A DNA stretch of 64,000 nucleotides from Escherichia phage vB_EcoM-Pr121LW. The stretch lies in sequence record MH752840.1; one strand, given 5' to 3'. Position numbers and translations under genes: made by a program. Positions 3,469-34,128 of this stretch are shown piece after piece (within the stretch, counting starts at the first letter, position 1; each line of letters starts with the position of its first letter). The notes under the pieces were generated by a model. It was not told the DNA's origin, did no database searches, and saw only the letters and a program-made list of their open reading frames with translations.

Positions 3469-4182
3469 TCAAATAGACTCTGTTACATCCTTGAAGCTCG
3501 AAGGCTTCATGATCTTACCTTTACTGTCAAGGAATATGATAACTTTATTACCGTTGTAGAACTCTTCCTTAGCAACAAAACCTTCGTAGCGACCACCAAA
3601 ACGACGCTCAAGATCTTTAATCTCCAACTCGATGAGTTGTTCAGCAGGCATATCTGCACTGGCACCGTGTGAATGCCGTAGATGGTTGATCCGTGCAAAC
3701 TTACTGTCATTAGATTTGAGAACCTTCCGCATCATCCCACACACATCGCCGCGAAGCTGGAACAGCAAAGCTGTTGACAACTCCGCTAAGCGGTAAGCTG
3801 ACGCTCTTTGCTTGGATGTGTTTTTCGCAGCGATCAGTGTATCATAGAACTCACCAATCTTGAACTTAAGACCTCGTGGATTATCAAACAGGTTTGACCA
3901 CTTTTCGTGATTGTCATTAACAAGATAGGCGGCATAACTTGTGACAACGTGAAGATCGCAGGCCTCTTTTAACAGGTGATCTCCACCATCACCTTTCTCC
4001 AGCTCTTCCAAAACCTCATTGAACTCTTCCTCAATGAAGCTAAGCTGTAATTCGAATGGTGTGTATGATTTTTTCACTTTAGCTGCCACACGGTTCCAGT
4101 TTTCCACCCAGTTGGCAGACCAAAGGTAGTTTTCAGGCTGAGACAGTTTTTCCAGGTTGTCGATCAGTTTAGTATTCAGCAT
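3469..4182 (-). CDS. MazG-like nucleotide pyrophosphohydrolase domain protein
   Basis: 237 aa; acidic EExxE ... ExxD helix motif (FIEEEFNEVLEELEKGDGGDHLLKEACDLH) resembling all-alpha NTP pyrophosphatases. Confidence 0.4.
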   Translation of the reverse strand: MLNTKLIDNLEKLSQPENYLWSANWVENWNRVAAKVKKSYTPFELQLSFIEEEFNEVLEELEKGDGGDHLLKEACDLHVVTSYAAYLVNDNHEKWSNLFDNPRGLKFKIGEFYDTLIAAKNTSKQRASAYRLAELSTALLFQLRGDVCGMMRKVLKSNDSKFARINHLRHSHGASADMPAEQLIELEIKDLERRFGGRYEGFVAKEEFYNGNKVIIFLDSKGKIMKPSSFKDVTESI

Positions 4183-4195
4183 TAAAGGTCTCCTT

Positions 4196-4957
4196 TTAAA
4201 GTTCCATAAAGTTTTCTACAGTTTCAATAAATGCTTTATCAGAGAAAGCGTCAACAGCACCGTTAAACCATACAGGGATCCCGCGATCCTCATATTGATA
4301 AAGGTCGCTACGTGAAATGCCACTTCCATCTGCACTCTGCGAGTCATACTTGTTTACAATCAGCAGTTTTGTGCCTTTACAAGTAGCAGGAAACAATTCC
4401 CAGTTAAAATTAATAACTGTGTTAGAACAACCTACCAGGATCACCATATCATTGCTTGTGAGAGATGTCAACAGGTCATACATGTCTGTATACTTAGGAG
4501 CAACCTCACCGAAGAACACTACATTAGGCTTAACCCAGGTATACTTGCCTGTATCTACCTCCGTATATCCGATATTTTTAATTACATCGTTACCTTCAGC
4601 ATCTTCGTAGGTGATTTCAGGCAAATACCCGTGGACATGTAAAATATCTTCATGTTTTACACCAGCACGCTCCAGCAAATCATCTACATTGGTGGTAAGG
4701 TTGATCACACGACCAGACCAGCGGGAATACCACTCAGCGATCCGAAGATGTGCAAGGTTAGGATCAACACTGCCCAGAGCTACACGACGTGCATTGTAAA
4801 AGTCATGCACCTTATAGTAGTTCTTGGCAAAGGTGTGGATGTTGCACACCTCATCGATGCTGAAATTCTCCCACATTGCAGTGCTACCAGATCGGAAAGT
4901 GGGAATACCAGATTCAGCGCTCAAACCGGCACCGGAGATAATAATCAGTCGTCGCAT
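4196..4957 (-). CDS. Sir2-family NAD-dependent protein (sirtuin-like)
   Basis: 253 aa; GAGLSAESGIPTFR, TTNVDDL..AG, HVHG and VVFFGE motifs; no CxxC zinc-ribbon pairs seen after the HG motif. Confidence 0.8.
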   Translation of the reverse strand: MRRLIIISGAGLSAESGIPTFRSGSTAMWENFSIDEVCNIHTFAKNYYKVHDFYNARRVALGSVDPNLAHLRIAEWYSRWSGRVINLTTNVDDLLERAGVKHEDILHVHGYLPEITYEDAEGNDVIKNIGYTEVDTGKYTWVKPNVVFFGEVAPKYTDMYDLLTSLTSNDMVILVGCSNTVINFNWELFPATCKGTKLLIVNKYDSQSADGSGISRSDLYQYEDRGIPVWFNGAVDAFSDKAFIETVENFMEL

Positions 4958-4965
4958 AAGTGTCC

Positions 4966-5316
4966 TCAGTAGATGTTTTGTTTAATCTCTATTCCAAACT
5001 TCTTGAATGAGTCAGCAGCAAGCATAAATTTACGAGCTGCCGATGGATTAGAAGTATGTACGAAAATCTTCACGTTGTCAATCACTGGAGGCTTACCGAA
5101 TACAAATTTTTCCTCCAACATGGATAGGCAATCGTATCCTTCGAATACTTCTCCTAGGTCGTTGTCCATATGCCACTCAGAAACGCGTCTGTAGAGCTTT
5201 CCCTTATCGTTAATAAAATCCATAAACTCTGAGGAATTCTTCAGCCAAATAGCGTCTGGGAGTCCATAATTTGACGGATCTCTCAAATCATCCAGCCACA
5301 CAATCCACTTCTTCAT
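4966..5316 (-). CDS. hypothetical protein (possible RNA-repair-associated small domain)
   Basis: 116-aa ORF between the Sir2 and RNA ligase genes, overlapping the ligase stop; function inferred from context only. Confidence 0.4.
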   Translation of the reverse strand: MKKWIVWLDDLRDPSNYGLPDAIWLKNSSEFMDFINDKGKLYRRVSEWHMDNDLGEVFEGYDCLSMLEEKFVFGKPPVIDNVKIFVHTSNPSAARKFMLAADSFKKFGIEIKQNIY

Positions 5317-6248
5317 TGCATATAGTCCTCGTTGTGGAAATAGTAGTCCAGTATCTCACGACGCTCCTGCTCTAATAAGCAATTCCACACATCTTCTGTA
5401 TAGTTGCTACGAATAAATTTTACCATACCGTAAAACTCTTCGTCAACACGTTTAAAGATATCATCATCCCAAATCTTCCAAGCTTTACCCCTCATTACTG
5501 CCTTCCGTGCCAGATAGTATGGAGACTTGATCTTCAGCTGCAGATCATAAGGGTAGTAAGGCTTACGAATCATATACCCTTCACCTCTTGTTTCTGCAGC
5601 TAATTCTTTTGCATAGCTGAACGGAATTTCACGCACAGTGTGAGGACGTTTTGCACCAAGGTATTTGGCAATCCCATCTAAAGCTGCTTCTGGTAGCATT
5701 ATTCCAGAATCATTATATCTGCAACCTATCAAATATGCGCCATGATCTTCCTGAACAATATGCGGATCTGAAGGGTGGCAAATTTCAAACATGAATGTCA
5801 TGTTTTCATTGCCCATAACCTTCTTGATAAGATCTAAATTACCACATTGCTCCTTGATGGTTTCTTTTGCGAGGTTACAATATGGGGAATCAAGAGACCC
5901 GGTTGTTGAGAACAATAGTTCACCTTTATGAGATGATACCACACCGAGGAATCCGTTCTTTTTCTCTACCGCAGTAACAAGTTTACTGTCCGGTAGGTTG
6001 GTGGAGTTTTCTCCTAAGTTGAATACTTTTGTGAAAGGCCATGCCACAACATTCCCCTCATTGCCAACAACAATACCTCGGCACTCCAGTAAACGCGGAG
6101 ACAAATGCCACAGATCGTTGTAGAATACTTTTCTGGCATATTTATAGATCTTTAATCCAAGATCTGGATAATACCGACTGGTTACAAGACCTTTGTCTAC
6201 TAGGTCATCTGCATTAAAATACTTCATCATACGTTCCTCATTTGTCAT
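5313..6248 (-). CDS. RNA ligase 1 (T4 RnlA-like)
   Basis: 311 aa; LSPRLLECRGIVV and FTKVFNLGEN match T4 Rnl1 N-terminal motifs as I recall them; KxNG motif I (EKKNGFLG). Confidence 0.8.
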   Translation of the reverse strand: MTNEERMMKYFNADDLVDKGLVTSRYYPDLGLKIYKYARKVFYNDLWHLSPRLLECRGIVVGNEGNVVAWPFTKVFNLGENSTNLPDSKLVTAVEKKNGFLGVVSSHKGELLFSTTGSLDSPYCNLAKETIKEQCGNLDLIKKVMGNENMTFMFEICHPSDPHIVQEDHGAYLIGCRYNDSGIMLPEAALDGIAKYLGAKRPHTVREIPFSYAKELAAETRGEGYMIRKPYYPYDLQLKIKSPYYLARKAVMRGKAWKIWDDDIFKRVDEEFYGMVKFIRSNYTEDVWNCLLEQERREILDYYFHNEDYMQ

Positions 6249-6291
6249 TTTGTCAGTCTATCCTGCCACACAAATAACCTAGTGTCAACAC

Positions 6292-6320
6292 TTGAAATTA
6301 ACAAAACAGTTAGGTATACT
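6292..6320 (+). promoter_or_regulatory. sigma70-like promoter (TTGAAA-N17-TATACT)
   Basis: Consensus-like -35/-10 hexamers with 17-nt spacer upstream of the kinase gene. Confidence 0.45.
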
Positions 6321-6348
6321 ATCATTAAAATTAAAACGGAGGATTGCT

Positions 6349-6759
6349 ATGTCTAAAATGCTATATATCGTGCGTGGTCTGCCAGGGTCTGGCAAATCAA
6401 CACTGGCAAATGCGCTATCTTTAGAAGGTCTGTATCCACATTTTGAGAATGACATGTTTTGGTATGACGATGACGGCAATTACAACTGGGATGCAAGTAA
6501 AGTAACACTCGCAGCAAAATGGTGCAAAGATAACGTAGAAGATATGATGCGTATGGGATACGACCGTATCGTGGTAAGTAATACGTTTACAAAAGAAAAA
6601 CATGTGCAGGAATATGTTGACATGGCAATCAGTCATGGGTATAGTTATACCGTAATCGTGGTTGAAAACCGCCACGGTAATAAAAGCATTCATGATGTTC
6701 CAGACAAGGTTGTGGATCGTATGGAACGCCAGCTTAAAAACTGCATTAAACTTAAATGA
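6349..6759 (+). CDS. P-loop polynucleotide kinase-like protein
   Basis: Walker A GLPGSGKST near the N-terminus; start moved to the ATG at 6349 behind a GGAGG RBS. Confidence 0.6.
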   Translation: MSKMLYIVRGLPGSGKSTLANALSLEGLYPHFENDMFWYDDDGNYNWDASKVTLAAKWCKDNVEDMMRMGYDRIVVSNTFTKEKHVQEYVDMAISHGYSYTVIVVENRHGNKSIHDVPDKVVDRMERQLKNCIKLK

Positions 6760-6766
6760 GGAATGT

Positions 6767-7321
6767 ATGAAATACTTTGTAACAAGCGATACGCACTTTC
6801 TCCACCAGCGGGTCATGGAGTTTGATTCATGTCAAAAACACAGATCTCAATATGATCACAATCTTGACAGTATGAATGCGGGAATCATCACCGAGTGGAA
6901 CTCCGTTGTGTCACCTGCAGACACTGTGTTCCACCTGGGAGATATTGCGTGCACTAATGATAAGAATATCAACAACTTACTTCCAGATATTCTAAATATG
7001 TTGAACGGACATATTATTCTTGTTCGTGGCAACCATGACACAAGGACGACTGTCAGAATTATGAAAGAGTTCGGTCATGAGGTTGTAGATTATTACGAGC
7101 TTCGCCACAACAAGAATTTGATCTGTATGAGCCATTACCAGTTTGCAAAGTGGAACAGAAAGCCTCACGGATCAGTCCAACTGTTCGGTCATGCTCACGG
7201 AACCACACAACAGTTGTTTGGCAGGCAGCTTGATGTCGGTTGGGATGTGTGGGGGAGACTCTTACCATTAGAAGAGGCATACCGTATTGCAATGAGTTTT
7301 GATATTGACAGCAGGGAGTAA
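6767..7321 (+). CDS. calcineurin-like metallophosphoesterase
   Basis: VTSDTHF, HLGDIAC, GNHD and GHAH motifs; start moved to the ATG at 6767 behind a GAGGA RBS. Confidence 0.7.
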   Translation: MKYFVTSDTHFLHQRVMEFDSCQKHRSQYDHNLDSMNAGIITEWNSVVSPADTVFHLGDIACTNDKNINNLLPDILNMLNGHIILVRGNHDTRTTVRIMKEFGHEVVDYYELRHNKNLICMSHYQFAKWNRKPHGSVQLFGHAHGTTQQLFGRQLDVGWDVWGRLLPLEEAYRIAMSFDIDSRE

Positions 7322-7368
7322 TCCCTGCTATTTTAAAGAAAATTGCCACACAAGGAGAATCAGGAGAT

Positions 7369-7719
7369 ATGAAAGATGGGGATAAGCTGCTATATCTTAA
7401 AGTCCCCCTTGAAATACTATCTATGTCAAAAGTTTTGAATGACACAACTGGGGAGGTTGTTGTTCTTGACTTGTATGACAAGATTGTATACTGCTACCTG
7501 CACAACTGGTATAAGCTTGGAGGAAATTCCCGCTTCACACCAAGCACAAGGAAAATTGCAGCAGATGTTGGGATAAAGAAAACAAAAGCAGCAGCGTGCG
7601 TTAAAACTTTAGAATGTGCAGGAGTGGTTGAAACATCCACACAAGGGAGAGGTAAAAGATGCACATTTTCCAAAGTTTTGCCACCAGAAGAAGTTATTCG
7701 AATGTCAACAACTGGTTAG
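7369..7719 (+). CDS. HTH DNA-binding protein (candidate regulator or initiator)
   Basis: 116 aa with helix-turn-helix-like segment STRKIAADVGIKKTKAAACVKTLE; sits immediately upstream of the iteron array. Confidence 0.4.
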   Translation: MKDGDKLLYLKVPLEILSMSKVLNDTTGEVVVLDLYDKIVYCYLHNWYKLGGNSRFTPSTRKIAADVGIKKTKAAACVKTLECAGVVETSTQGRGKRCTFSKVLPPEEVIRMSTTG

Positions 7720-7794
7720 ACCAGTAAAAACTTAAATATCTGTACTATAAGGGTTTGTATGTTTTATGTTCACCATGGAACAGAAACTATTAAC

Positions 7795-7875
7795 TGTCCG
7801 TGATACGGACACCACTGTCCGTCACGCGGACACATCTGCCCGTAATACGGACACTAACTGTCCGTGATACGGACA
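7795..7875. repeat. four palindromic 17-bp sites at about 21-bp spacing
   Basis: TGTCCGTGATACGGACA at 7795-7811 and 7859-7875, variants at 7816-7832 and 7837-7853. Confidence 0.8.
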
Positions 7876-8010
7876 CATAAAGAATATAACTAAAATAACT
7901 AAATAATAAAAAATAAAAGATCTAGTACTTATGGTACTAAGTACATATACTTAACTTATGTAGAATATACTAGATCCTAAGTACCATGTTTTAAATTTAT
8001 TACTTTCTAT
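7876..8010. other. AT-rich tract with local palindromes (possible unwinding element)
   Basis: Strongly AT-rich stretch right after the iterons; contains GTACTTA ... TAAGTAC inverted repeats. Confidence 0.35.
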
Positions 8011-8013
8011 AGG

Positions 8014-8258
8014 TAGTGTCGGCCCTTCATTGGCACTCGCCTACGAGGGGCGAGATGCCGGGCCTCCATAGTGCACACATGCAGGTCTGTTAACATGTGT
8101 GGGAGCGAAGCGGCGCAGGCCAAAGGCCGAGCACTAATGTGGACCACCGACGAAAGCTTGCCAGCGCCGTAAGGAGTCGGTTGAGAGCCTCCCGCGCGAG
8201 TTTGGATAAAGTTTATGTGTGGAAACGGACAATGAGGCCCCTAAATCGCTCCACAGCC
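8014..8258 (+). ncRNA. candidate structured RNA or long structured leader
   Basis: GC-rich ORF-free segment with several perfect hairpins (CTCGCC/GGCGAG; CACACATG/CATGTGTG) in an otherwise AT-rich region. Confidence 0.25.
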
Positions 8259-8358
8259 ATATAAACTATACCAAGTAAGGCAATCGCACCAGTTTGATAG
8301 AAAAGCTCGTTACAAAGCGATACAGCGAGTTTTTCTATAACTTGAAGAGGAGGCAGCT

Positions 8359-8937
8359 ATGAGTCCACGCAAAGATGACCGTGAAAAGATTGCAAAACGT
8401 TATCAGAATGAAGAACAGATGGAGAAAACTTTCAAGTGGAAGCCAGGTTTCCAGCGTAATCATTCTAACGCTCGTGATCGTAAGCATCCGGATAAGTGGT
8501 TAACACCGCCAAATGATGGCATGCAGGTTGGTGATGAGAAGGAGCTGTCACCTGGAAAAGATGGCAACTACATTCGCACTAAGGAAGCAGGTCCAAAGGA
8601 TGACAGCTATCTTGTAGATAAGGTTCTTGATGGTATTGATGTGGATGTTGACACTGCACGAAACCTTTTTCTTGGTTGGTATCGTACAGGGTTTTTCGAC
8701 ATCAAGGCTATTCGTCGTGTTTGCGATATTAAAAAGTCTGCCTATGATGATGACTCTCTACATCGCACTCTGAGACAATACTCAGAGAGATACGGTCATC
8801 CAGTCATCACTATTGACGATATTAACGAAGTGATGTATCATGCAGAGGTTGTTGCAGGTAGATTCGGTGATGCATATCTCGGTATTCTTTCTGCAAAAGA
8901 TGAGGTAATGTTAAATAAAATTTACTATGAACGCTGA
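8359..8937 (+). CDS. hypothetical protein
   Basis: 192-aa ORF behind strong RBS GAGGAGG; basic N-terminus. Confidence 0.5.
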   Translation: MSPRKDDREKIAKRYQNEEQMEKTFKWKPGFQRNHSNARDRKHPDKWLTPPNDGMQVGDEKELSPGKDGNYIRTKEAGPKDDSYLVDKVLDGIDVDVDTARNLFLGWYRTGFFDIKAIRRVCDIKKSAYDDDSLHRTLRQYSERYGHPVITIDDINEVMYHAEVVAGRFGDAYLGILSAKDEVMLNKIYYER

Positions 8938-8947
8938 GGAGCGCTTA

Positions 8948-9136
8948 ATGAACAACCCGGTAGCAAAGAACTGTAATAAGTTCAACAAGTCTGCAATTCA
9001 CACTGACAGGAAAAAGAGCTGGTCTCCTGACATTGACGAGGAGCTTGAGAGTTACTTTGAAGACCTGGTCACTAATGCAGATGAGGTTGCGATTAAAGAA
9101 TACGCAGACAGGAAGGATAAGGCCGGAATCTGTTGA
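8948..9136 (+). CDS. hypothetical protein
   Basis: Small ORF; start chosen at ATG 8948 behind GAGGAG. Confidence 0.3.
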   Translation: MNNPVAKNCNKFNKSAIHTDRKKSWSPDIDEELESYFEDLVTNADEVAIKEYADRKDKAGIC

Positions 9137-9161
9137 CAAAAATAGTGTTACCTGATAAGAT
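9133..9161 (+). promoter_or_regulatory. sigma70-like promoter (TTGACA-N17-TAAGAT)
   Basis: Consensus -35 with 17-nt spacer upstream of the 9213 gene. Confidence 0.4.
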
Positions 9162-9212
9162 CTGCAATATGATGTGATGCAATTTTAACTTACGAGGTCT
9201 ACAGGTAATGCT

Positions 9213-9455
9213 ATGTTTAAGGTTAAGCTCGTTTTTCGTTCCATGAATGAGGATTATTTAGAAGATGAAGGTGAATTTCGTGCACTGGATGATGCAATAG
9301 ATTTTGCCAACGACTTAGCTTGTATGAATACAGGTTATGGGCTATGCTGTTGGGATGGTGGTGTTCAGATCGGTGATAGCAAGATCTTCTACTTCTACCC
9401 TGAGCCTGATAACAAACAAATTAAGTATGTTTTATTTATTTGTGCTTTACAATGA
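9213..9455 (+). CDS. hypothetical protein
   Basis: 80-aa ORF downstream of the promoter at 9133. Confidence 0.4.
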   Translation: MFKVKLVFRSMNEDYLEDEGEFRALDDAIDFANDLACMNTGYGLCCWDGGVQIGDSKIFYFYPEPDNKQIKYVLFICALQ

Positions 9456-9474
9456 GGTTGTTTTCGTGTATCAT
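9447..9474 (+). promoter_or_regulatory. possible promoter (TTACAA-N16-TATCAT)
   Basis: Promoter-like hexamers immediately upstream of the GC-rich structured segment. Confidence 0.25.
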
Positions 9475-9504
9475 GATGAATATCCAATTTAAAGATGAAT
9501 TTGA

Positions 9505-9743
9505 TGGCTTTATCTCCGGATGCTTTGAAACAGGGTTCGGAGAAGACTGAGTTCCCCTCAGAGGGCTTGATAGTGCACCACACTTAAAATGGTAGGGGCA
9601 GCCAGCACATGACGATGTGACCCCAGCCAACCTGTAACAAGGTCGAGCCGAAGCGCGGGTAATAGGCCTCTGGTAACCCACTTGTTGGGTCTTGCTGGTC
9701 CAGGACGCTGGACAAGTCGCAGGGAATACCACCCTGCGGCGAA
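9505..9743 (+). ncRNA. candidate structured RNA
   Basis: GC-rich intergenic segment with multiple perfect hairpins (CCCTC-A-GAGGG; CCAG-GACG-CTGG; CAGGG-AATACCA-CCCTG); only low-complexity antisense ORFs. Confidence 0.25.
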
Positions 9744-9744
9744 C

Positions 9745-9773
9745 TTGACAATCAGTATTTGCTATGATAAAAT
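9745..9773 (+). promoter_or_regulatory. sigma70-like promoter (TTGACA-N17-TAAAAT)
   Basis: Consensus hexamers with 17-nt spacer upstream of the 9802 gene. Confidence 0.5.
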
Positions 9774-9801
9774 CCACCTATCACGTGATAATGGAGGAAA
9801 C

Positions 9802-10140
9802 ATGGCGGATACAACTAAAAAGCGTCGCCGTAGAGGCAGACCTCTGAAAGAGGAGTCCAACGCCATTCAGCTAGAGAAGAACATCCTTGATATGAAGGAA
9901 TCTTTTATAGCGATGGTTCCAGAAGCTCACAAAGTTTTAAGAGAGCTGATGTTGGACCCGAAAACCAAACAAAATATTCGTCAAAGCATTGCAGAGTATG
10001 TTCTTGATAAGGCAGACCGAATGCAGGAAGAATATGATGAGATGTTTGGTGAAGAGGAAGAGGTGGTAGTAGAAGAGGCTGAAAAACCAGCACCTTTTAT
10101 GCCATTTACCACAGAAATACAACCTGTTAGCAATAGCTAA
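9802..10140 (+). CDS. AT-hook-like basic N-terminus, acidic C-terminus protein
   Basis: N-terminal KKRRRRGRPLKEE; C-terminal EEYDEMFGEEEEVVVEEAE; start at ATG 9802 behind GGAGG. Confidence 0.5.
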   Translation: MADTTKKRRRRGRPLKEESNAIQLEKNILDMKESFIAMVPEAHKVLRELMLDPKTKQNIRQSIAEYVLDKADRMQEEYDEMFGEEEEVVVEEAEKPAPFMPFTTEIQPVSNS

Positions 10141-10149
10141 AATATTTTC

Positions 10150-10178
10150 TTGACAAACTTTGCTTAACAGTGTAATAT
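10150..10178 (+). promoter_or_regulatory. sigma70-like promoter for the tRNA cluster (TTGACA-N17-TAATAT)
   Basis: Consensus hexamers about 60 nt upstream of the first tRNA. Confidence 0.5.
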
Positions 10179-10236
10179 TGTAAACATGGTCTCCCACCTT
10201 TTCTGGCGGCTAAGGTGTAAAAGAAAGCCACCCAGT

Positions 10237-10308
10237 GCCCTGTTAGCTTAGTGGATAAAGCAGCGGCCTTCTAAGCCGTTGACACTGGTTCGAGTCCAGT
10301 ACGGGGTG
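10237..10308 (+). tRNA. tRNA-Arg (anticodon TCT)
   Basis: Hand-folded cloverleaf: acceptor GCCCTGT/ACGGGGT with two G-U pairs, anticodon loop CTTCTAA, T-loop GGTTCGAGTCC, CCA encoded. Confidence 0.6.
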
Positions 10309-10442
10309 CCAAGTTCTTTTTAATGTAGCTTACTTTAGCAGAGTAAATCTTCGGCAAGTGGCGGTAACCACTTTTACCGATACCTCATAGTTAGTGGTGA
10401 GAACACTAGCTATTTTAAAAAGAATTTAAATATTAGTATTTA

Positions 10443-10833: not shown

Positions 10834-10930
10834 GCTAGGTAAGCCCTTTGGCAAGGGCGAGGATTTTTAATCCTGAAAATAGACGAGGTAGTCGTTGAAT
10901 ACATAGGTGGTTCGATTCCACCACCTAGCA
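10834..10930 (+). tRNA. atypical tRNA-like element (anticodon possibly TTT; about 29-nt variable region)
   Basis: Acceptor GCTAGGT/ACCTAGC, D-arm GCCC..GGGC and T-arm GGTGGTTCGATTCCACC fold, but anticodon stem is 4 bp plus a mismatch and total length about 97 nt. Confidence 0.3.
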
Positions 10931-10937
10931 CCTTTTT

Positions 10938-12281: not shown

Positions 12282-12706
12282 TGTCTAAGATTTACGGACC
12301 GTGTTCTGAAAAGCAGAAGATGATCCTCGAAAACGATGCAGATATTTTGGTAATCGGCGGTGCCGCAGGGTCTGGCAAGTCGTTCCTCTTGCAGTTGATG
12401 CCGCTTAAAATTATCGATGACCCCCACAGCTCTGTGGTTATGTTCCGAAGAACAACCCCACAGTTGGAAGGTGAGGGTGGACTATGGCCTAAAGCAGTAG
12501 CTATTTATAGCGATCTGCCTGAAAACATTAAGCCAAAGTTCAGAGAGAAGGATCATAAGTTCATTTTTCCACGGTTTGATCCGAACACTGGCAAGTGGGA
12601 TAGAAGCAAAAAGGGAGCTGTTGTAAAATACTGCCACATGGAGTATGTACAAGATAAGCTTAACCATCAAGGGCTTGAGTACACCATGGTTTGCTTCGAT
12701 GAGGGT
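12281..12706 (+). CDS. terL: terminase large subunit, exon 1 (ATPase domain)
   Basis: Walker A GGAAGSGKS, Walker B-like MVCFDE; ORF stops at TAA 12707-12709, taken as the first intron codon. Confidence 0.7.
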
Positions 12707-13023
12707 TAATTTGTAGCTCTCGTAAAACCTCCCTAATTGCGGGGAAATCTTTACTATTAATACCACCAACCTGTCATGGTAACATGATAGAGGCTTCGAA
12801 GAGAGATCGAAGGTATGGTAACAGTGTGTTAATTTAGATAATCCGCAGCGAAGCATCCGAGAGGATGAACGTTCAACGACTAGTCGAAAGACGTAGAATC
12901 AAGCGATTCGAAACGGGAGGGTAAGCGGTTGTTGTCGCTTATAAGATATAGTCTGGTCTGCATGGAGACATGCAGCTGCCTGAAAAATGGCGGGGCAAGA
13001 CTAGCGACCTTGCCCGAACATAG
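12707..13023 (+). ncRNA. group I self-splicing intron (no internal ORF); boundaries approximate
   Basis: Conserved core motifs GTTCAACGACTAGTCG (12871-12886) and AAGATATAGTC (12943-12953); splits terL; 5' exon ends in U, intron ends in G. Confidence 0.6.
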
Positions 13024-17730: not shown

Positions 17731-18741
17731 ATGATTACTCGTAAAGATGAATTTGGCATTGTTGATTTAGGTGCTACTCTGGACCTTGTTCCGCGCCAAT
17801 TCCGACTGATTACCGGTATGGATCTGTTCGAAACCCGTCTCGGCACCTCAACGATTGCTCAGATCGAGCGTGTTGATGAAGTTGTAACCGACATTCCGGC
17901 ACGCCGTCGTGGTGGTGAGCGTAACTACGTTGGTAATGAACGTGCTCAGGTTAAAAACCTGAACATCCCGTTCTTCCCTCTGGACAAAGGCATCACCGCC
18001 GCAGATGTTCAGAACTTCCGTCGTTACTTCACCCCTGATGCTCCGAAAACTGTTCAGGACGTAGTAACCCGAGTTGTTCGCCGTATCCGTGTTTCCCATG
18101 AAGCACTGCGTGAGAAAGCGCTGTTCCAGGCTATTCTGGGTAAATCCTATGCACCTGGTGACGCTACCTGCCAGTATGATTACTACACTCTGTGGGGTGT
18201 GTCTCAGAAATCTGTAGAAATCGATCCAGCAAAAGCAGATCAGGACCCGATGGAAGTTCTGGAAGACGCTCGTCTGCATATCGCTCTGCAAGCTGGTGAC
18301 AACGCTGCTGGCTACCGTATCGTGGCTCTGTGCTCTCCTGAGTTCTTCAGTGCAGTCACTCACCACCCGCTGGTAGAGCTGGCATACACCTACTACGGCT
18401 CTGCTCAGGAACCTCTGCGTCGTCGTCTGGGTGCTGGCGGTCAGGACAGCGTTTATCGTGTGTTCGAACATAAAGGTATCACCTTTATCGAAGATATCTC
18501 TGGCAATATTCCTAAGAAAGAAGCTCGCATTCTGCCGATGGGTATTGATCAGATGTTCCAGCTGCACTTTGCTCCGGCAGATGATGTTAACGAAGCAAAT
18601 ACCCCAGCACAGGAACTGTATATGTGGTATAAACACTCTGCATACCTGCGTGAAGAGAAGATTGAATCTGAAACTTCTATGCTGGCAGTTAACACCCGTC
18701 CAGAGCTGGTTGTTAAAGCAACTCTGAAAGGTGGTGAATAA
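17731..18741 (+). CDS. major capsid protein
   Basis: 336 aa, strong RBS, followed by a very strong terminator; position after the scaffold gene. Confidence 0.65.
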   Translation: MITRKDEFGIVDLGATLDLVPRQFRLITGMDLFETRLGTSTIAQIERVDEVVTDIPARRRGGERNYVGNERAQVKNLNIPFFPLDKGITAADVQNFRRYFTPDAPKTVQDVVTRVVRRIRVSHEALREKALFQAILGKSYAPGDATCQYDYYTLWGVSQKSVEIDPAKADQDPMEVLEDARLHIALQAGDNAAGYRIVALCSPEFFSAVTHHPLVELAYTYYGSAQEPLRRRLGAGGQDSVYRVFEHKGITFIEDISGNIPKKEARILPMGIDQMFQLHFAPADDVNEANTPAQELYMWYKHSAYLREEKIESETSMLAVNTRPELVVKATLKGGE

Positions 18742-18765
18742 TCACTGAGGTGATTCATCCCATAT

Positions 18766-18795
18766 GGGGAGGGGGTTCTCCCCCTCCCCTTTTTA
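18766..18795 (+). terminator. rho-independent terminator
   Basis: Perfect hairpin GGGGAGGGGG-TTCT-CCCCCTCCCC followed by TTTTT. Confidence 0.8.
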
Positions 18796-20386: not shown

Positions 20387-20845
20387 ATGCTAAAGGTTAA
20401 ATGTCAAACAAGGTTCAACCTAAAGCGTTTAGATAGCTTCTACAAAGAACTTGTGAGACTTGAAAGTAAAACAATAACCTACGGCTTTTATGACGAACCT
20501 CACCCGTCAGGCTTAAATATGGCAACATTGGCAGCCATTCACAACTTTGGTTGGAACGGGCTGCCTGTTCGCAATTTCATGGAGACAGCCTTTGCATTTC
20601 ACAGCACTCAACTGCAGACCTTGACAGAAAAATTGTTGAGAGCTATGGCGAGAGGATCAAGTGCAGAGGCTATTCTTAAGCAGATGGGGGACACAGGGGC
20701 CAAAGCTATCCAGTTTGTTATTGAGGCTGGTCAGTTTAGTAATCCTACTGTTAGTGAGCAGTGGGCACAAGAAAAGGGCTTCAACGAGGCTATGCGGCAT
20801 TACGATGTGCTGCTTGAATCTGCAACCTTTAAAATCGGACAGTAA
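20387..20845 (+). CDS. head-tail joining region protein
   Basis: Start at ATG 20387 behind GAGGGA; position between head and tail genes. Confidence 0.4.
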   Translation: MLKVKCQTRFNLKRLDSFYKELVRLESKTITYGFYDEPHPSGLNMATLAAIHNFGWNGLPVRNFMETAFAFHSTQLQTLTEKLLRAMARGSSAEAILKQMGDTGAKAIQFVIEAGQFSNPTVSEQWAQEKGFNEAMRHYDVLLESATFKIGQ

Positions 20846-27165: not shown

Positions 27166-28049
27166 TGCCAAATAATATAGTTGATGAAAAAGATCTGTAC
27201 AAGCCTCAAGAGGTTAAGTCTCCAAAGGCTGAAAAGGCTGAGCAGCAAACTGAAGGTGATGTAAAGTACACTATGTTTGTCAGCGGTCTTAACTATGGTG
27301 GTCGCAATACGGAGATGAAGGGTAAAAACTTTACTAACGATCTTGCTATTATCTTCGACCAGGTTGAGAACTATTCTTTCAAACATTCTGTTGATAAAAC
27401 TGGTTTTGCAGTGGAAGATAAATCTACCATGTCAGACCACGCTGTAATTAAAGATGGTGTATTTTCTTTTACTGGTAGGGTAAATACATCCCCACATATA
27501 ATTTATGAGCAAAACTACATTGATAGGAATACTGACTCTAAAAACCCTGCAGCATCTATGAGACCAGGCGCTGCATTGGAGGCTTTGACTGAGATTATCA
27601 ATAAGCGACAGTTGGTTTCCTTGGTTACCGAGGAGAGACTCCTTGAGAACTATATCATAACCAGCCTTTCTGCCAACAAGTCTGTTGGTGAAGGCGCTGC
27701 AATGGTGTTTGATGTGGAACTTACAGAGTTCCGCACATTCTACTTGAATAAGGTTGTTAATGCAACAGTGTACAGCAATCCTAAAAAAGTTGGGAAGACC
27801 CAGCAAAAAGGTGCTGTCAACGATTGCAAGAATGGTAGTAATGTAGGTAACAAGAGAGATACAGGGGCATTTGCAGACACTGCATCCACAAATGCTGCAG
27901 AAGAGTGGCAGCCATACAAGTCTATGATGTGGACAGATGAAAACGGTGTTACCCAGTCCGCTGCCGATTGGTACTATCAGGAATATGGAAGACCTTCCAC
28001 TATAGTTCCGTCAGAGCAGGGAAACTACGACAAAGTTAACGGAAAATAA
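27166..28049 (+). CDS. tail or baseplate protein
   Basis: First gene after the tape measure; start at ATG 27166 behind GGAGAGG. Confidence 0.4.
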
Positions 28050-31530: not shown

Positions 31531-34128
31531 ATGCGTATTCAACATAACATTGATAACGTATTTCAGATGATTGAGGGGCACAGGAAGTGCCTCGATAACA
31601 ACACAGGTATTACCAACACCCCTACACAAAATAAGCTAGTAAACCCTGATGGTCTTATAGCTGCAGGGTGGGCAGGTAATAAGATAAATAATGATTGGGC
31701 GATGCATGAGCCCCAAGCTGTGTTGATTCTGGGATACATTGAAGCATACAGGGCATCGAAAAGCGATTTCTATCTGGATAGGGCAAAAGATGCTTGGGAA
31801 GCTTACAATAGCCATCTTCTAGGTGCATATGCAGTAGAAAGTAAAATGCAAAGATTGTCCCACTACCCTCTATCTACAGATGGGGTTCCATCACATGGTG
31901 GGTTTAAAGATGTGGTGGTGTCTTTTACCAATGGTAGAGGAAAAATCCCAGCTGGATCTCCGACATGGGGGGAATACCTGGACAAGGCATTCCAAGCGTA
32001 TAACGGCGTGTTAGGAAGAAACACTGTAGACTCTGATGTTTACGGTGGCACAGATGATAACCCAGATTGGACAACATCCGGATTAAGTTGGTGGGTTGAG
32101 TGGTATATAGCATGGGATGGTAATCGCTATTGGGCTAACGGTAGCATAGCTGATAGTGGTCATACGTCTGTAGAGTTTGGCACAATCCAATTACAAGACA
32201 AGGGTGTTACAGGCAACCACAAAGTGACCTATTGTGTAAGATTACCTCAAGAGCAGGGTGGATCGGTGATCCCTGCTGGATCCCCTGTAATTGTGAATCC
32301 TATAAACGTGGTTGCAGACAATCAAGCCCCAGAGTTGGATGGGGAAGAAATGTGGTGTGACGCTTGTTATCAACTCTACACCTTGACAGGTGAGGAAAAG
32401 TATTACACCGCGTTTAAACAGTCTTACAACAAGTTGCTTAATTTCAGTGATATAAACGCTTACGACAAACTGTTTAGAAAGACCACGTTGATTAAGGCAC
32501 CATTTACAGATGGTACTTGTCTTGTTGCAGGAACAGTTCCTGTCACGAGCAGAGACAGTGACGGGTATATCAATTTTAGAATGAACGCACGCCAGCCTTG
32601 CGAAATAATTCAAAAAGGTACCACCTACAAAATAGGCAGAGATGCTGAAATTGTCATGAATTTCGGAGGAGAGGGGGTTCTGTTCCAGCCACATTTCATC
32701 CTTAATGATGGCAACAATAACAAAAAACAGTACAGGATAGGTGTCCCTTTTGGAGGTGCAGAGGTAACAGAAATAGTTGCCAAGGTTACTGATTTCGTAG
32801 AGGTAGTTGGTAAAGACGGTAATCCGTACCTCTTACCTAAAGAGGAAAACATTGCCGTGAGCGGTGGTGCCAGTGTTAGTATGCAGTACGATACTGACAT
32901 TTACAACCACTCTGACAACTTCACCCGTTGTAATATAGCAAGAGGCAAAGTAACTTTCAATTTTGGAAGAGAGATTTCTTTAAACTCAGTAACTTATCGA
33001 TCAGATGATGAGATGGTAAGGGTCAAATTTCTTGACAAAGATAGGTGGTTATGGTATGCTGATCTATATGCCACTAATGGACAATGGATAACAGAAACTC
33101 TTACTCTAGGAGATTTCAAACTAGATCCGACACAACCTCATCACACTGAAGAAGAGATTAAACCTTTCTTTGCTAATCCTAAGGGACTCACCTCTGTAGA
33201 TTTCAGCCTAAGCGACAGACAGATAGGTAATGGCTTGTTTGATCTATATTGCGTCAACACACTGCCGCAATTCTATATTGCAGATAGGGATGCTTATCTA
33301 ATCTGGTTTAGCGTATGGATGGCAAGCAAGACAGAATCAACCGCTAAGGTTGGTGATTGCTATGTCAGAAACTACAAGCAAGGTGCATACAGGCACACTC
33401 CTGGTGTGTTCCCTGCCGGAAAGGTGATAGATAAGGAAAATTACCTCTTGGAGGAAAAGCCAAATTGGCCATATCCAGGTATGCAATACCCCGCAGTCTA
33501 CTGTATGGGTGCAGAAAACATAGATCGCTATAGGTTGTCAAATACAATAGGCTTTCTGTATGACGCTCAAGTCTGGTATAATAACACATTTAAGACAGAG
33601 GGTCCAGTCGCCTCACGTTATGTATGGCAGAGAGGTAATGAAGGATTAACTGGTTGGTGGGAGATGGTAGATAACTCTAAGCTCCAGTCAAGATCTTTTG
33701 TTGCTGCGTGCCGCACAATCTATGAGCTCAAGAAACATAAAGAACCTGTTGATGAAAGATTATTCCTGTTCTGCCAGAAATGGGCATGGTTCCTCAACAG
33801 ATTCCAGTCATCTCATTCAGGAAATCTACCTACAGACTTTAACACCTCTGGGGGATATTCTTATCAAGACAGAGGAGACAGGATGTGGGTGGTAGGTGAA
33901 TGGCTTGCAGGCTGCTGCTGGCTAGGTCTGTGCGGGTATTCAGAGACAATACCACAAATAGATATTGTTGTAGAAGCCTGTGTGAAGCTACTGCAAAAGC
34001 ACCACTTCATTAATGGTGATAATGTTTTAAACGGCTGCTGGGCAGTTTCTGATCCGGTGGGCTATCACTCTGGCGAAATCCTTCGCGGTCTGGGACTTTA
34101 TGCTCAATACCGTGGATTGTACCTTTAA
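31531..34128 (+). CDS. large virion protein (probable receptor-binding or depolymerase-type)
   Basis: 865-aa ORF within the fibre block; no catalytic motif recognised. Confidence 0.4.
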   Translation: MRIQHNIDNVFQMIEGHRKCLDNNTGITNTPTQNKLVNPDGLIAAGWAGNKINNDWAMHEPQAVLILGYIEAYRASKSDFYLDRAKDAWEAYNSHLLGAYAVESKMQRLSHYPLSTDGVPSHGGFKDVVVSFTNGRGKIPAGSPTWGEYLDKAFQAYNGVLGRNTVDSDVYGGTDDNPDWTTSGLSWWVEWYIAWDGNRYWANGSIADSGHTSVEFGTIQLQDKGVTGNHKVTYCVRLPQEQGGSVIPAGSPVIVNPINVVADNQAPELDGEEMWCDACYQLYTLTGEEKYYTAFKQSYNKLLNFSDINAYDKLFRKTTLIKAPFTDGTCLVAGTVPVTSRDSDGYINFRMNARQPCEIIQKGTTYKIGRDAEIVMNFGGEGVLFQPHFILNDGNNNKKQYRIGVPFGGAEVTEIVAKVTDFVEVVGKDGNPYLLPKEENIAVSGGASVSMQYDTDIYNHSDNFTRCNIARGKVTFNFGREISLNSVTYRSDDEMVRVKFLDKDRWLWYADLYATNGQWITETLTLGDFKLDPTQPHHTEEEIKPFFANPKGLTSVDFSLSDRQIGNGLFDLYCVNTLPQFYIADRDAYLIWFSVWMASKTESTAKVGDCYVRNYKQGAYRHTPGVFPAGKVIDKENYLLEEKPNWPYPGMQYPAVYCMGAENIDRYRLSNTIGFLYDAQVWYNNTFKTEGPVASRYVWQRGNEGLTGWWEMVDNSKLQSRSFVAACRTIYELKKHKEPVDERLFLFCQKWAWFLNRFQSSHSGNLPTDFNTSGGYSYQDRGDRMWVVGEWLAGCCWLGLCGYSETIPQIDIVVEACVKLLQKHHFINGDNVLNGCWAVSDPVGYHSGEILRGLGLYAQYRGLYL

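Follow-up and report, generated by a model that had tools for sequence, protein, structure and literature searches.

Escherichia phage vB_EcoM-Pr121LW (MH752840.1) was analysed over a stretch of 64,000 nt, referred to here as the window, and this study concerns a GC-rich segment of 245 nt at 8014–8258 (seg1). Seg1 had been delimited in a preliminary description made from the sequence alone; all coordinates are those of the window, and the + strand is the strand shown. Seg1 is non-coding, is under purifying selection, and most probably acts as a signal in cis and is not a gene. It has a defined hairpin anatomy with covarying stems, it co-occurs with the initiator-like gene gp208, and parts of it are shared with plasmids of about 13 kb. 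We tentatively read seg1 as the structured flank of an iteron-type replication origin, which would act like a single-strand initiation signal. That the module is an origin and that its hairpins form in DNA, not in RNA, are inferences from the anatomy, as is the kind of protein that would bind it.

The GC content of seg1 in 200-nt windows was 0.595 (8000–8199) and 0.535 (8100–8299), and that of its flanks was 0.335–0.43. The GC island reported at 8014–8258 was thus borne out (0.58–0.60 versus about 0.40 around it). Three islands with a GC content of at least 0.55 occur in the 64 kb, of which seg1 and 9551–9751 are two. The third, 18251–18451, is probably coding.

All hairpins of seg1 are given for the + strand. 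H1 (8019–8067) is composed of the helices GGCCC/GGGCC (8021–8025/8060–8064), GGCA/TGCC (8032–8035/8056–8059), and CTCGCC/GGCGAG (8036–8041/8049–8054); the last is the innermost, with the loop TACGAGG, and is nested within the other two (8021–8064). H2 (8074–8101) is formed by CACACATG (8074–8081) and CATGTGTG (8094–8101), which make up the inverted repeat I17. The H1 core and H2 had both been noticed before and are present, one base away from where they had been placed. An 18-nt indel within H2 changes its length, and the hairpin is retained: this phage and rV5 carry the short form, and most relatives have 18 nt more, which lengthen the same hairpin to 6+7+4 bp. One compensatory change (A-T to C-G) was found in H2 of Ga0129313, a divergent metagenomic relative. 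The heptamer GCGAAGC (8105–8111) is followed by the small hairpin H3 (GGCC-AAA-GGCC, 8118–8128), recognised by reading the sequence. H3 was unchanged in 12 relatives, and GCGAAGC varied in them (GCAAAGC, ACGAAGC). The H4 core block (8136–8198) is present as a single copy within the window. It consists of the flank AATGTGGACC, the stem ACCGAC/GTCGGT (8146–8151/8176–8181), the enclosed 24-nt loop GAAAGCTTGCCAGCGCCGTAAGGA (8152–8175), and the flank CTCCCGCGCG (8189–8198).

The fold of H1 was far more stable than that of shuffled sequences (z −4.25 as RNA and −3.7 as DNA; 0 of 200 shuffles as stable). The whole 245 nt of this copy did not stand out from shuffles in this way (+ strand, z −0.8 to −1.0; − strand, z −1.9 to −2.0). 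The version of seg1 common in Vequintavirus reached −3.3/−3.6, and related arrays reached −2.5 to −7; the weak fold of this copy is due to the loss of 18 nt from H2. The H4 region was not more structured than its shuffles (z +0.7 to +1.5), so the conserved H4 loop would be displayed unpaired.

The comparison of phages with plasmids showed that the secondary structure of seg1 is kept by compensatory changes. The H4 stem changes from ACCGAC/GTCGGT in phages to GCTGCC/GGCAGC in plasmids; both bases differ in four of the six pairs, 95% of cells are paired, and the signal fell to near zero when the partner was slid by 1–3 columns. The 24-nt loop, GAAAGCTTGCCAGCGCCG(T/G)AAGGA, varies at one position (T/G at 8170) across phages and plasmids. 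H1 was 100% paired in six distinct sequences, and two of its 15 pairs are compensatory in the plasmid L011 (GGCA/TGCC to GTCA/TGAC and CTCGCC/GGCGAG to CTCTCC/GGAGAG). The loops of H1 have few variable positions. In another plasmid element, L018, the whole H4 stem has been swapped for an 8-bp stem, GTCCGGAT/ATCCGGAC, with a different loop, between the kept flanks AATGTGGA and GGAGTCTCCCGCGCG. Conserved unpaired bases on a variable stem are the signature of a folded single strand that carries a putative protein-recognition site. Compensatory pairs hold equally for a DNA hairpin, and they therefore do not decide between RNA and DNA. RNAalifold gave a covariation term of about 0 on 12 phage sequences because the genus is too uniform, and the proposed global fold was unsupported.

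The region 7700–8400 is 100% identical to Escherichia phage Murica (Vequintavirus, rV5 group) and 84–98% identical to 116 further records. Window positions 4700–10312 are 99.1% identical to Murica, with gp209 at 96.4%, which makes the present phage a close relative of Murica and distinct from it. Related phages keep seg1 with its structure conserved, and it lies in all 118 genomes at a single fixed site. The gene gp208 and seg1 occur in the identical set of 118 Vequintavirus records and nowhere else in the phage library. The gene gp209 was found in 119 records, all Vequintavirus, and none of gp208, seg1, and gp209 was found in other Vequintavirinae. Eighteen records labelled 'Campylobacter phage' (MG0656xx) are near-identical to the E. 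coli Vequintaviruses across the locus and are probably mislabelled or contaminant assemblies.

Diversity was calculated as the mean pairwise value (pi) over ten genomes. The spacer 7720–7790 (0.107) and the third codon positions of gp208 and gp209 (0.08–0.11) were the most diverse. Much lower values were obtained for the repeats at 7791–7876 (0.013), the AT-rich region at 7877–8013 (0.027), H1 (0.008), 8068–8135 (0.046), and the H4 core (0.033). The constrained unit is therefore unbroken from the repeats to about 8199. The final 60 nt of the segment (8200–8258; 0.091) evolve close to neutrally.

Seg1 is part of a module with the order gp208, four repeats, an AT-rich palindromic region, the hairpin block, a conserved 100-nt leader with a hairpin, and gp209. 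The gene gp208 (7369–7719, + strand) encodes an initiator-like helix-turn-helix protein of 116 amino acids. It matched PHROG 12838 'replication initiation protein' with an E value of 5e-80, and its Pfam HTH_36/DUF6945 match sits just under the cut-off (HTH_36, 24.5 bits versus 25). Its role as an initiator is putative and rests on these annotation-level names. The four direct repeats (7791–7876, family D1) are 21–22 bp long, are spaced at 21–22 bp with 77–100% identity, and are each internally palindromic (TGTCCGTGATACGGACA), so that they are iteron- or operator-like. The AT-rich region (7877–8013; GC 0.335 at 7800–7999) contains the nested inverted repeats I12 and I14 and two GATC sites and is a candidate unwinding element. 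Three features of an iteron-type theta origin are found side by side: an adjacent initiator-like DNA-binding gene, at least three direct repeats of about 17–22 bp, and an adjoining AT-rich region. Imperfect matches to the DnaA box were seen at TGTGGAAAC (8218–8226) and TGTGGACCA (8138–8146) by eye only, without a DnaA-matrix scan. The DnaA-box-like matches and T7-type primase sites (GTGTC, TGGTC) in this copy were dropped as candidates, as they are not conserved in relatives. The same applied to the hexamer AAGCGG, which is known from primosome assembly sites.

Searches of complete E. coli genomes found matches to seg1 on plasmids only, and two further elements came from metagenomes. These elements are circular and 13.2–13.7 kb long, one being assembled as a 39.6-kb trimer; the family includes L013 (NZ_CP020521.1), L012, L016, L017, L018, L020, and L022. 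They encode a major capsid protein, a Dit-like tail protein 52–55% identical to the window protein at 27294–27851, a tail-completion-like protein 48% identical to that at 20474–20815, and a tape-measure protein with stretches 38–51% identical to the window protein at about 25–26 kb. No terminase, portal, or polymerase was found among the annotated genes of the element; family searches covered 13 of its 15 proteins, and the remaining two are short open reading frames (ORFs). With capsid and tail genes and none of these functions detected, the elements must rely on helper functions. By gene content they look like plasmid-form satellites of rV5-like phages, of which we found no published description; nor did we find one of the seg1 region, the rV5 origin, or rV5 transcriptomics.

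The control region of the plasmids is a non-coding stretch of 2.9 kb laid out as the phage module is. Element-specific palindromic repeats are followed by a short AT- or G-rich stretch, a hairpin array, CTAAAT boxes, and strong promoters with the first genes. The arrays are 250–650 nt long, and their small hairpins are set apart by TGTGTGGG, which corresponds to the motif TGTGTGG. Two blocks of seg1, H1 and the H4 core, recur in these arrays with order and orientation kept. The H1 block (8009–8067) is 85% identical in one plasmid (L011, 996–1055), and the H4 core (8136–8198) is about 84% identical in six of seven elements, with five plasmid loci aligned at this level. These blocks are the sole non-coding DNA that the plasmids share with the 64-kb window. 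Other parts of the plasmid layout also have counterparts in seg1. TGTGTGG (family D2) occurs there twice on the + strand as a punctuation motif, at 8096–8102 and 8216–8222, and a CCCCTAAATCGC box lies at 8238–8249 (+ strand); CTAAATCGC/CTAAATGGC boxes come after the arrays and ahead of the promoters in all plasmids. The window as a whole holds 25 copies of TGTGTGG versus 12.1 ± 3.7 expected, a number reached in 0 of 100 shuffles. Eight copies fall between 3.7 and 7.7 kb; all but one of these are on the − strand, in a cluster at 3737–7643.

No similarity was detectable between gp208 and the two proteins encoded upstream of the plasmid repeats, and the L018 array had no BLAST match in phages. 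A 25-base core pattern was absent from GTDB genomes and was found in six metagenome contigs, four phage-like and two plasmid-like. In viral contigs, the GAAAGCTTGCCAGCGCCG pattern matched one true rV5-like contig and, by chance, one stretch of high-GC coding DNA. A pattern from the H1 flank gave 38 matches in GTDB genomes and was discarded, since all were unrelated high-GC sequences, including a Schlesneria repeat.

We speculate that the origin flank would work as follows. The initiator would open the AT-rich region, and the adjoining block, once single-stranded, would snap into the stable hairpins H1, H2, H3, and H4. The hairpins would exclude single-strand-binding protein (SSB) and present fixed loops to a host or phage protein that primes synthesis or loads a helicase. 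The clearest candidates for such presented sequences are the near-invariant 24-nt H4 loop on its variable stem and the loops of H1. This would be the mode of the single-strand initiation signals beside plasmid origins. Stable mini-hairpins are found at the priming sites of phage G4 and of RSF1010 ssiA, beside iterons (PMC13037366). As the H1 and H4 blocks occupy the same place in the plasmids of about 13 kb, these plasmids would use the same trans-acting factor.

A second repeat array with a mini-hairpin in the Murica genome was counted as support for the origin-flank reading. The region lies outside the window (L027 30560–33120, NC_041871 about 102.3–104.8 kb) and is 2.5 kb long and almost gene-free. 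About eight repeats of the TGTTCAC/TGTTTACA type (32040–32160) are followed at 32216–32266 by the triple mini-hairpin CTGGCTATGCCAG GTGACCTTTGGTCAC CCCTTCGGG, and a large palindrome centred on AGATCT is also present. Part of the Rep-like gene of the plasmid L013 (10884–10934) is 86% identical to this mini-hairpin module. This region may be another origin, or the main one.

The origin reading can be taken one step further. Seg1 may be a signal shared by rV5-like phages and the previously undescribed satellites of about 13 kb, with the H4 loop and H1 serving as the handle by which one helper or host protein fires or primes both replicons. We regard this extension as possible but doubtful. The satellites carry capsid, tape-measure, and tail-adaptor genes of their own, and if the extension is true, seg1 is the point where the satellite plugs into its helper.

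Several points weigh against an origin flank. The origin could not be located in the rV5 paper (PMC3606486), and the palindromic repeats could equally be operators. In local alignment with the G4 complementary-strand origin, seg1 scored 18 on either strand versus 16.6 ± 2.0 for shuffled sequences (p about 0.3). Two plasmid arrays reached p about 0.01 against the same origin through a shared 10-mer, GTGCCTACGG, a marginal value without correction. No conserved primase start motif was seen by eye beside the hairpins; the trinucleotide CTG does not occur directly 3′ of H1, H2, or H4 on the + strand, and the − strand was inspected by eye only. The independent lineages are few (phage, plasmid, and L018), so the covariation is suggestive, not overwhelming. 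Seg1 also has no significant similarity to anything in Rfam: the covariance search gave no match on 8014–8258 at gathering thresholds, and at E ≤ 10 it gave only a partial 'rli43' match of 24 bits (gathering score 100), mostly over the AT-rich region. Lastly, the + strand is very probably transcribed, so a role as RNA is possible. One-sided changes on this strand are compatible with G-U pairs (pair 28–63 is GU in two sequences, and A-U changes to G-U at A2 columns 165–200), and the plasmid arrays are usually 9–13 kcal/mol more stable as + than as − strand folds.

The last three points lead to the reading of seg1 as part of an early polycistronic transcript, which would run from the promoter at 7305–7334, 5′ of gp208, through gp208, the repeats, and seg1 into gp209 and gp210. 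The hairpins would then serve in mRNA processing or stability, for instance as sites of the RNase III type or as a 5′ structure that protects the gp209 message, or they would be bound by a translational regulator. This is a real possibility, close behind the origin flank, and both readings are drawn from anatomy. A scan for sigma-70-like promoters and intrinsic terminators, which did not include phage-specific promoter types, found none at 7334–8358 on either strand; the + strand is therefore probably transcribed through seg1, and gp209 needs read-through. The gene gp209 (8359–8937, + strand) is the first gene 3′ of seg1 and is genus-specific. As described before, it starts at 8359 with a strong ribosome-binding site (RBS), GAGGAGG. 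Just 5′ of this RBS lies an imperfect leader hairpin of 13 bp with a 16-nt loop (8297–8338, + strand; ATAGAAAAGCTCG/CGAGTTTTTCTAT, inverted repeat I7, 92% complementary), which is near-invariant in relatives and may attenuate or stabilise the gp209 message. Irregular hairpins of 15–17 bp are formed by H1 and by the longer version of H2. The one-sided changes on the + strand yield G-U and not C-A, which also favours RNA, and a Shine-Dalgarno-like AAGGAG lies within the conserved H4 loop.

The evidence at the DNA level points at least as strongly the other way. The plasmid blocks homologous to seg1 lie upstream of strong promoters, outside any evident transcription unit. The order and polarity of repeats, AT-rich region, hairpin block, and downstream genes are fixed in phage and plasmids. 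Both observations point to a DNA element. The two strands of seg1 fold about equally, with similar z values, the supported stems of H1–H4 are Watson-Crick, and one hairpin module is inverted in L018. The equal folding and the inversion are easier to reconcile with an element that acts as DNA. A processing hairpin would not need to be as conserved as H1 is (pi 0.008), and the segment belongs to no Rfam family. A long-range pairing of GCCTCC with the gp209 RBS was rejected because it showed no covariation: the RBS is GGAGTC in Aya and SKEA01, and GGGCCTCC is unchanged in them.

Improbable, in our view, is a site for helper machinery other than replication, for instance a signal for packaging (pac) or a sequence bound by a phage regulator, which satellites would have copied so that rV5-like phages package or induce them. 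This reading would suit elements that have a capsid and tail proteins 38–55% identical to those of the phage and no detected terminase, portal, or polymerase. It would also suit the H1 and H4 blocks as the only non-coding DNA shared with the window, the single-copy core, and the terminase gene about 4 kb downstream. However, pac and operator sites are read as duplex, for which compensatory stems with unchanged loops are unexpected, and the rV5 genome is reported to be circularly permuted without a defined end (PMC3606486). Its location next to repeats and an AT-rich region, in phage and plasmids alike, suggests replication, and the plasmid comparison left out about 22 kb of the phage genome.

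We give as little credence to the idea that the hairpins are small selfish palindromes, comparable to REP or RPE elements, which build up in the non-coding DNA of these phages and plasmids and have no function for the phage. The plasmid arrays do resemble mosaics of interchangeable mini-hairpin modules with the separator TGTGTGGG. The triple mini-hairpin module recurs in the other non-coding region of the phage, as a decayed inverted copy in an ORF, and in a plasmid gene, and it is present in only 55 of 118 Vequintavirus records. In contrast, seg1 is present at one fixed site in 118 of 118 genomes, H1 and the H4 loop are far more conserved than neutral sites, and the blocks keep their order and polarity between phage and plasmids. 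The idea is weakened by this signal of selection.

More doubtful still is that seg1 is a small RNA gene in its own right, with a separate promoter and terminator. The preliminary description had suggested a stable structured RNA or a regulatory leader; the structure, the non-coding character, and the selection held, and no sign of a discrete stable RNA gene was seen. Conserved structure and the nearby tRNA cluster would fit such a gene, and ΦTE, a distant relative, expresses a non-coding RNA (PMC3475682). However, that RNA is an unrelated AU-rich repeat, a sigma-70-type scan found no promoter-like or terminator-like site on either side of seg1 or on either strand, and Rfam gave no match. The statement that seg1 has no ORF on either strand was not literally correct, as ORFs of 55, 46, 33, and 32 amino acids overlap it, and it stands in that the segment behaves as non-coding. 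The 55-amino-acid ORF at 8097–8264, ORF78 of the rV5 annotation, is annotated in several GenBank records and is open in 10 of 12 relatives, but we dismissed it as a gene almost entirely, because it has a GTG start without an RBS, its substitutions have no codon periodicity or third-position excess (pi by phase 0.042/0.064/0.049 in ten relatives), it is frameshifted in phage Alma and stopped early in Ga0129313, and the plasmid DNA homologous to seg1 falls in no ORF of this type.

Seg1 had been linked to a second structured segment at 9505–9743 (seg2) by the shared motif CGAAGCG. The motif is present in both (8106 and 9649), but a common 7-mer is at chance level for two 250-nt stretches. Homology of the two segments was rejected: they gave no alignment, and the only shared words were ATAGTGCAC (E 0.7) and CGAAGCG (E 11). 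A promoter-like site (9446–9474) lies just upstream of seg2. The 44-nt core of seg2 (9623–9666) is 85–89% identical to an unannotated spot just 3′ of denV in about 400 T4-type phages (L003 2501–2543). It is also 94% identical over 35 nt to a site in the tRNA cluster of Pseudomonas phage PsgM04F (L004 2501–2534), in the same orientation as the tRNAs. Rfam had no match for seg2, and on the T4 and Pseudomonas-phage loci that match it only tRNAs were found. Seg2 is a better candidate than seg1 for a widespread unannotated phage RNA.

Other features were observed in the window. Relative to the Murica reference, a 130-nt insertion (10313–10442) lies between tRNA-Arg and the next tRNA. ARAGORN predicted a 99-nt tRNA with a four-base anticodon (atcc) at 10834–10932, which is 'tRNA-OTHER Asp|Gly' in the Murica record and reached only 37 bits in Rfam. 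As reported for rV5, the region of the large-terminase gene holds a group I intron (12697–12975; Rfam 84 bits). A probable terminator cluster at 18740–18783 is made up of three perfect mini-hairpins side by side and a T-run after them.

The rV5 group is a widely used therapeutic and typing genus whose origin has never been located, and the module is a concrete, testable candidate. The hairpin block, with its invariant loops and covarying stems, is a defined target in the search for the protein that initiates DNA synthesis. Its blocks also occur in satellite-like plasmids, which opens a way to study the exploitation of a virulent myovirus by such elements. Satellites can lower the yield of their helper, which would be relevant to phage therapy. 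Should seg1 work at the RNA level instead, a lytic coliphage would have a new intercistronic control element.

Among known systems, ssiA and ssiB of RSF1010 oriV are like seg1 in that stable hairpins lie directly beside iterons and an AT-rich stretch. In the RSF1010 signals, a mini-hairpin stabilises the stem that presents bases to the primase (PMC13037366). RSF1010 has two signals of about 40 nt on opposite strands and its own primase, RepB′, whereas seg1 is one 180-nt block on one side. The two have no sequence similarity, and no homologue of RepB′ was noticed here, although none was searched for. The G4 complementary-strand origin is also a cluster of about three hairpins on single-stranded DNA that excludes SSB and directs priming. 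Unlike it, seg1 has no conserved CTG seen beside a hairpin and no significant similarity to that origin, and its GCGAAGC mini-hairpin is not conserved in relatives. In plasmid R1 a hairpin cluster of this kind, the 'G site', is located downstream of oriR; it and the region bound by the initiator are a few hundred bp apart, with the cluster on one side only. The right-hand inverted repeat of lambda ori and the GC-rich segment of RK2 oriV are origin flanks of about 30–60 bp whose role is unclear. In these origins, as in the present module, initiator sites and an AT-rich region are followed by a GC-rich or palindromic segment; their flanks are short, whereas seg1 has about 180 nt, several hairpins, and sequence-invariant loops.

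Early transcripts of the T7 group contain intercistronic RNase III hairpins, which are single, about 20 bp or more in length, and located inside defined mRNAs. Like the hairpins of seg1, they are irregular and structurally conserved and separate early genes of a lytic coliphage. They differ from seg1 in that its homologous plasmid blocks lie upstream of promoters and both of its strands fold alike. The 'promoter-early stem-loop' (PeSL) cassettes of T4-type phages include a promoter and are found next to ORFs all over the plastic regions. They resemble the present modules as short, repeated, non-coding stem-loop units that mediate mosaic shuffling, whereas the modules described here carry no promoter and are clustered beside repeat arrays.

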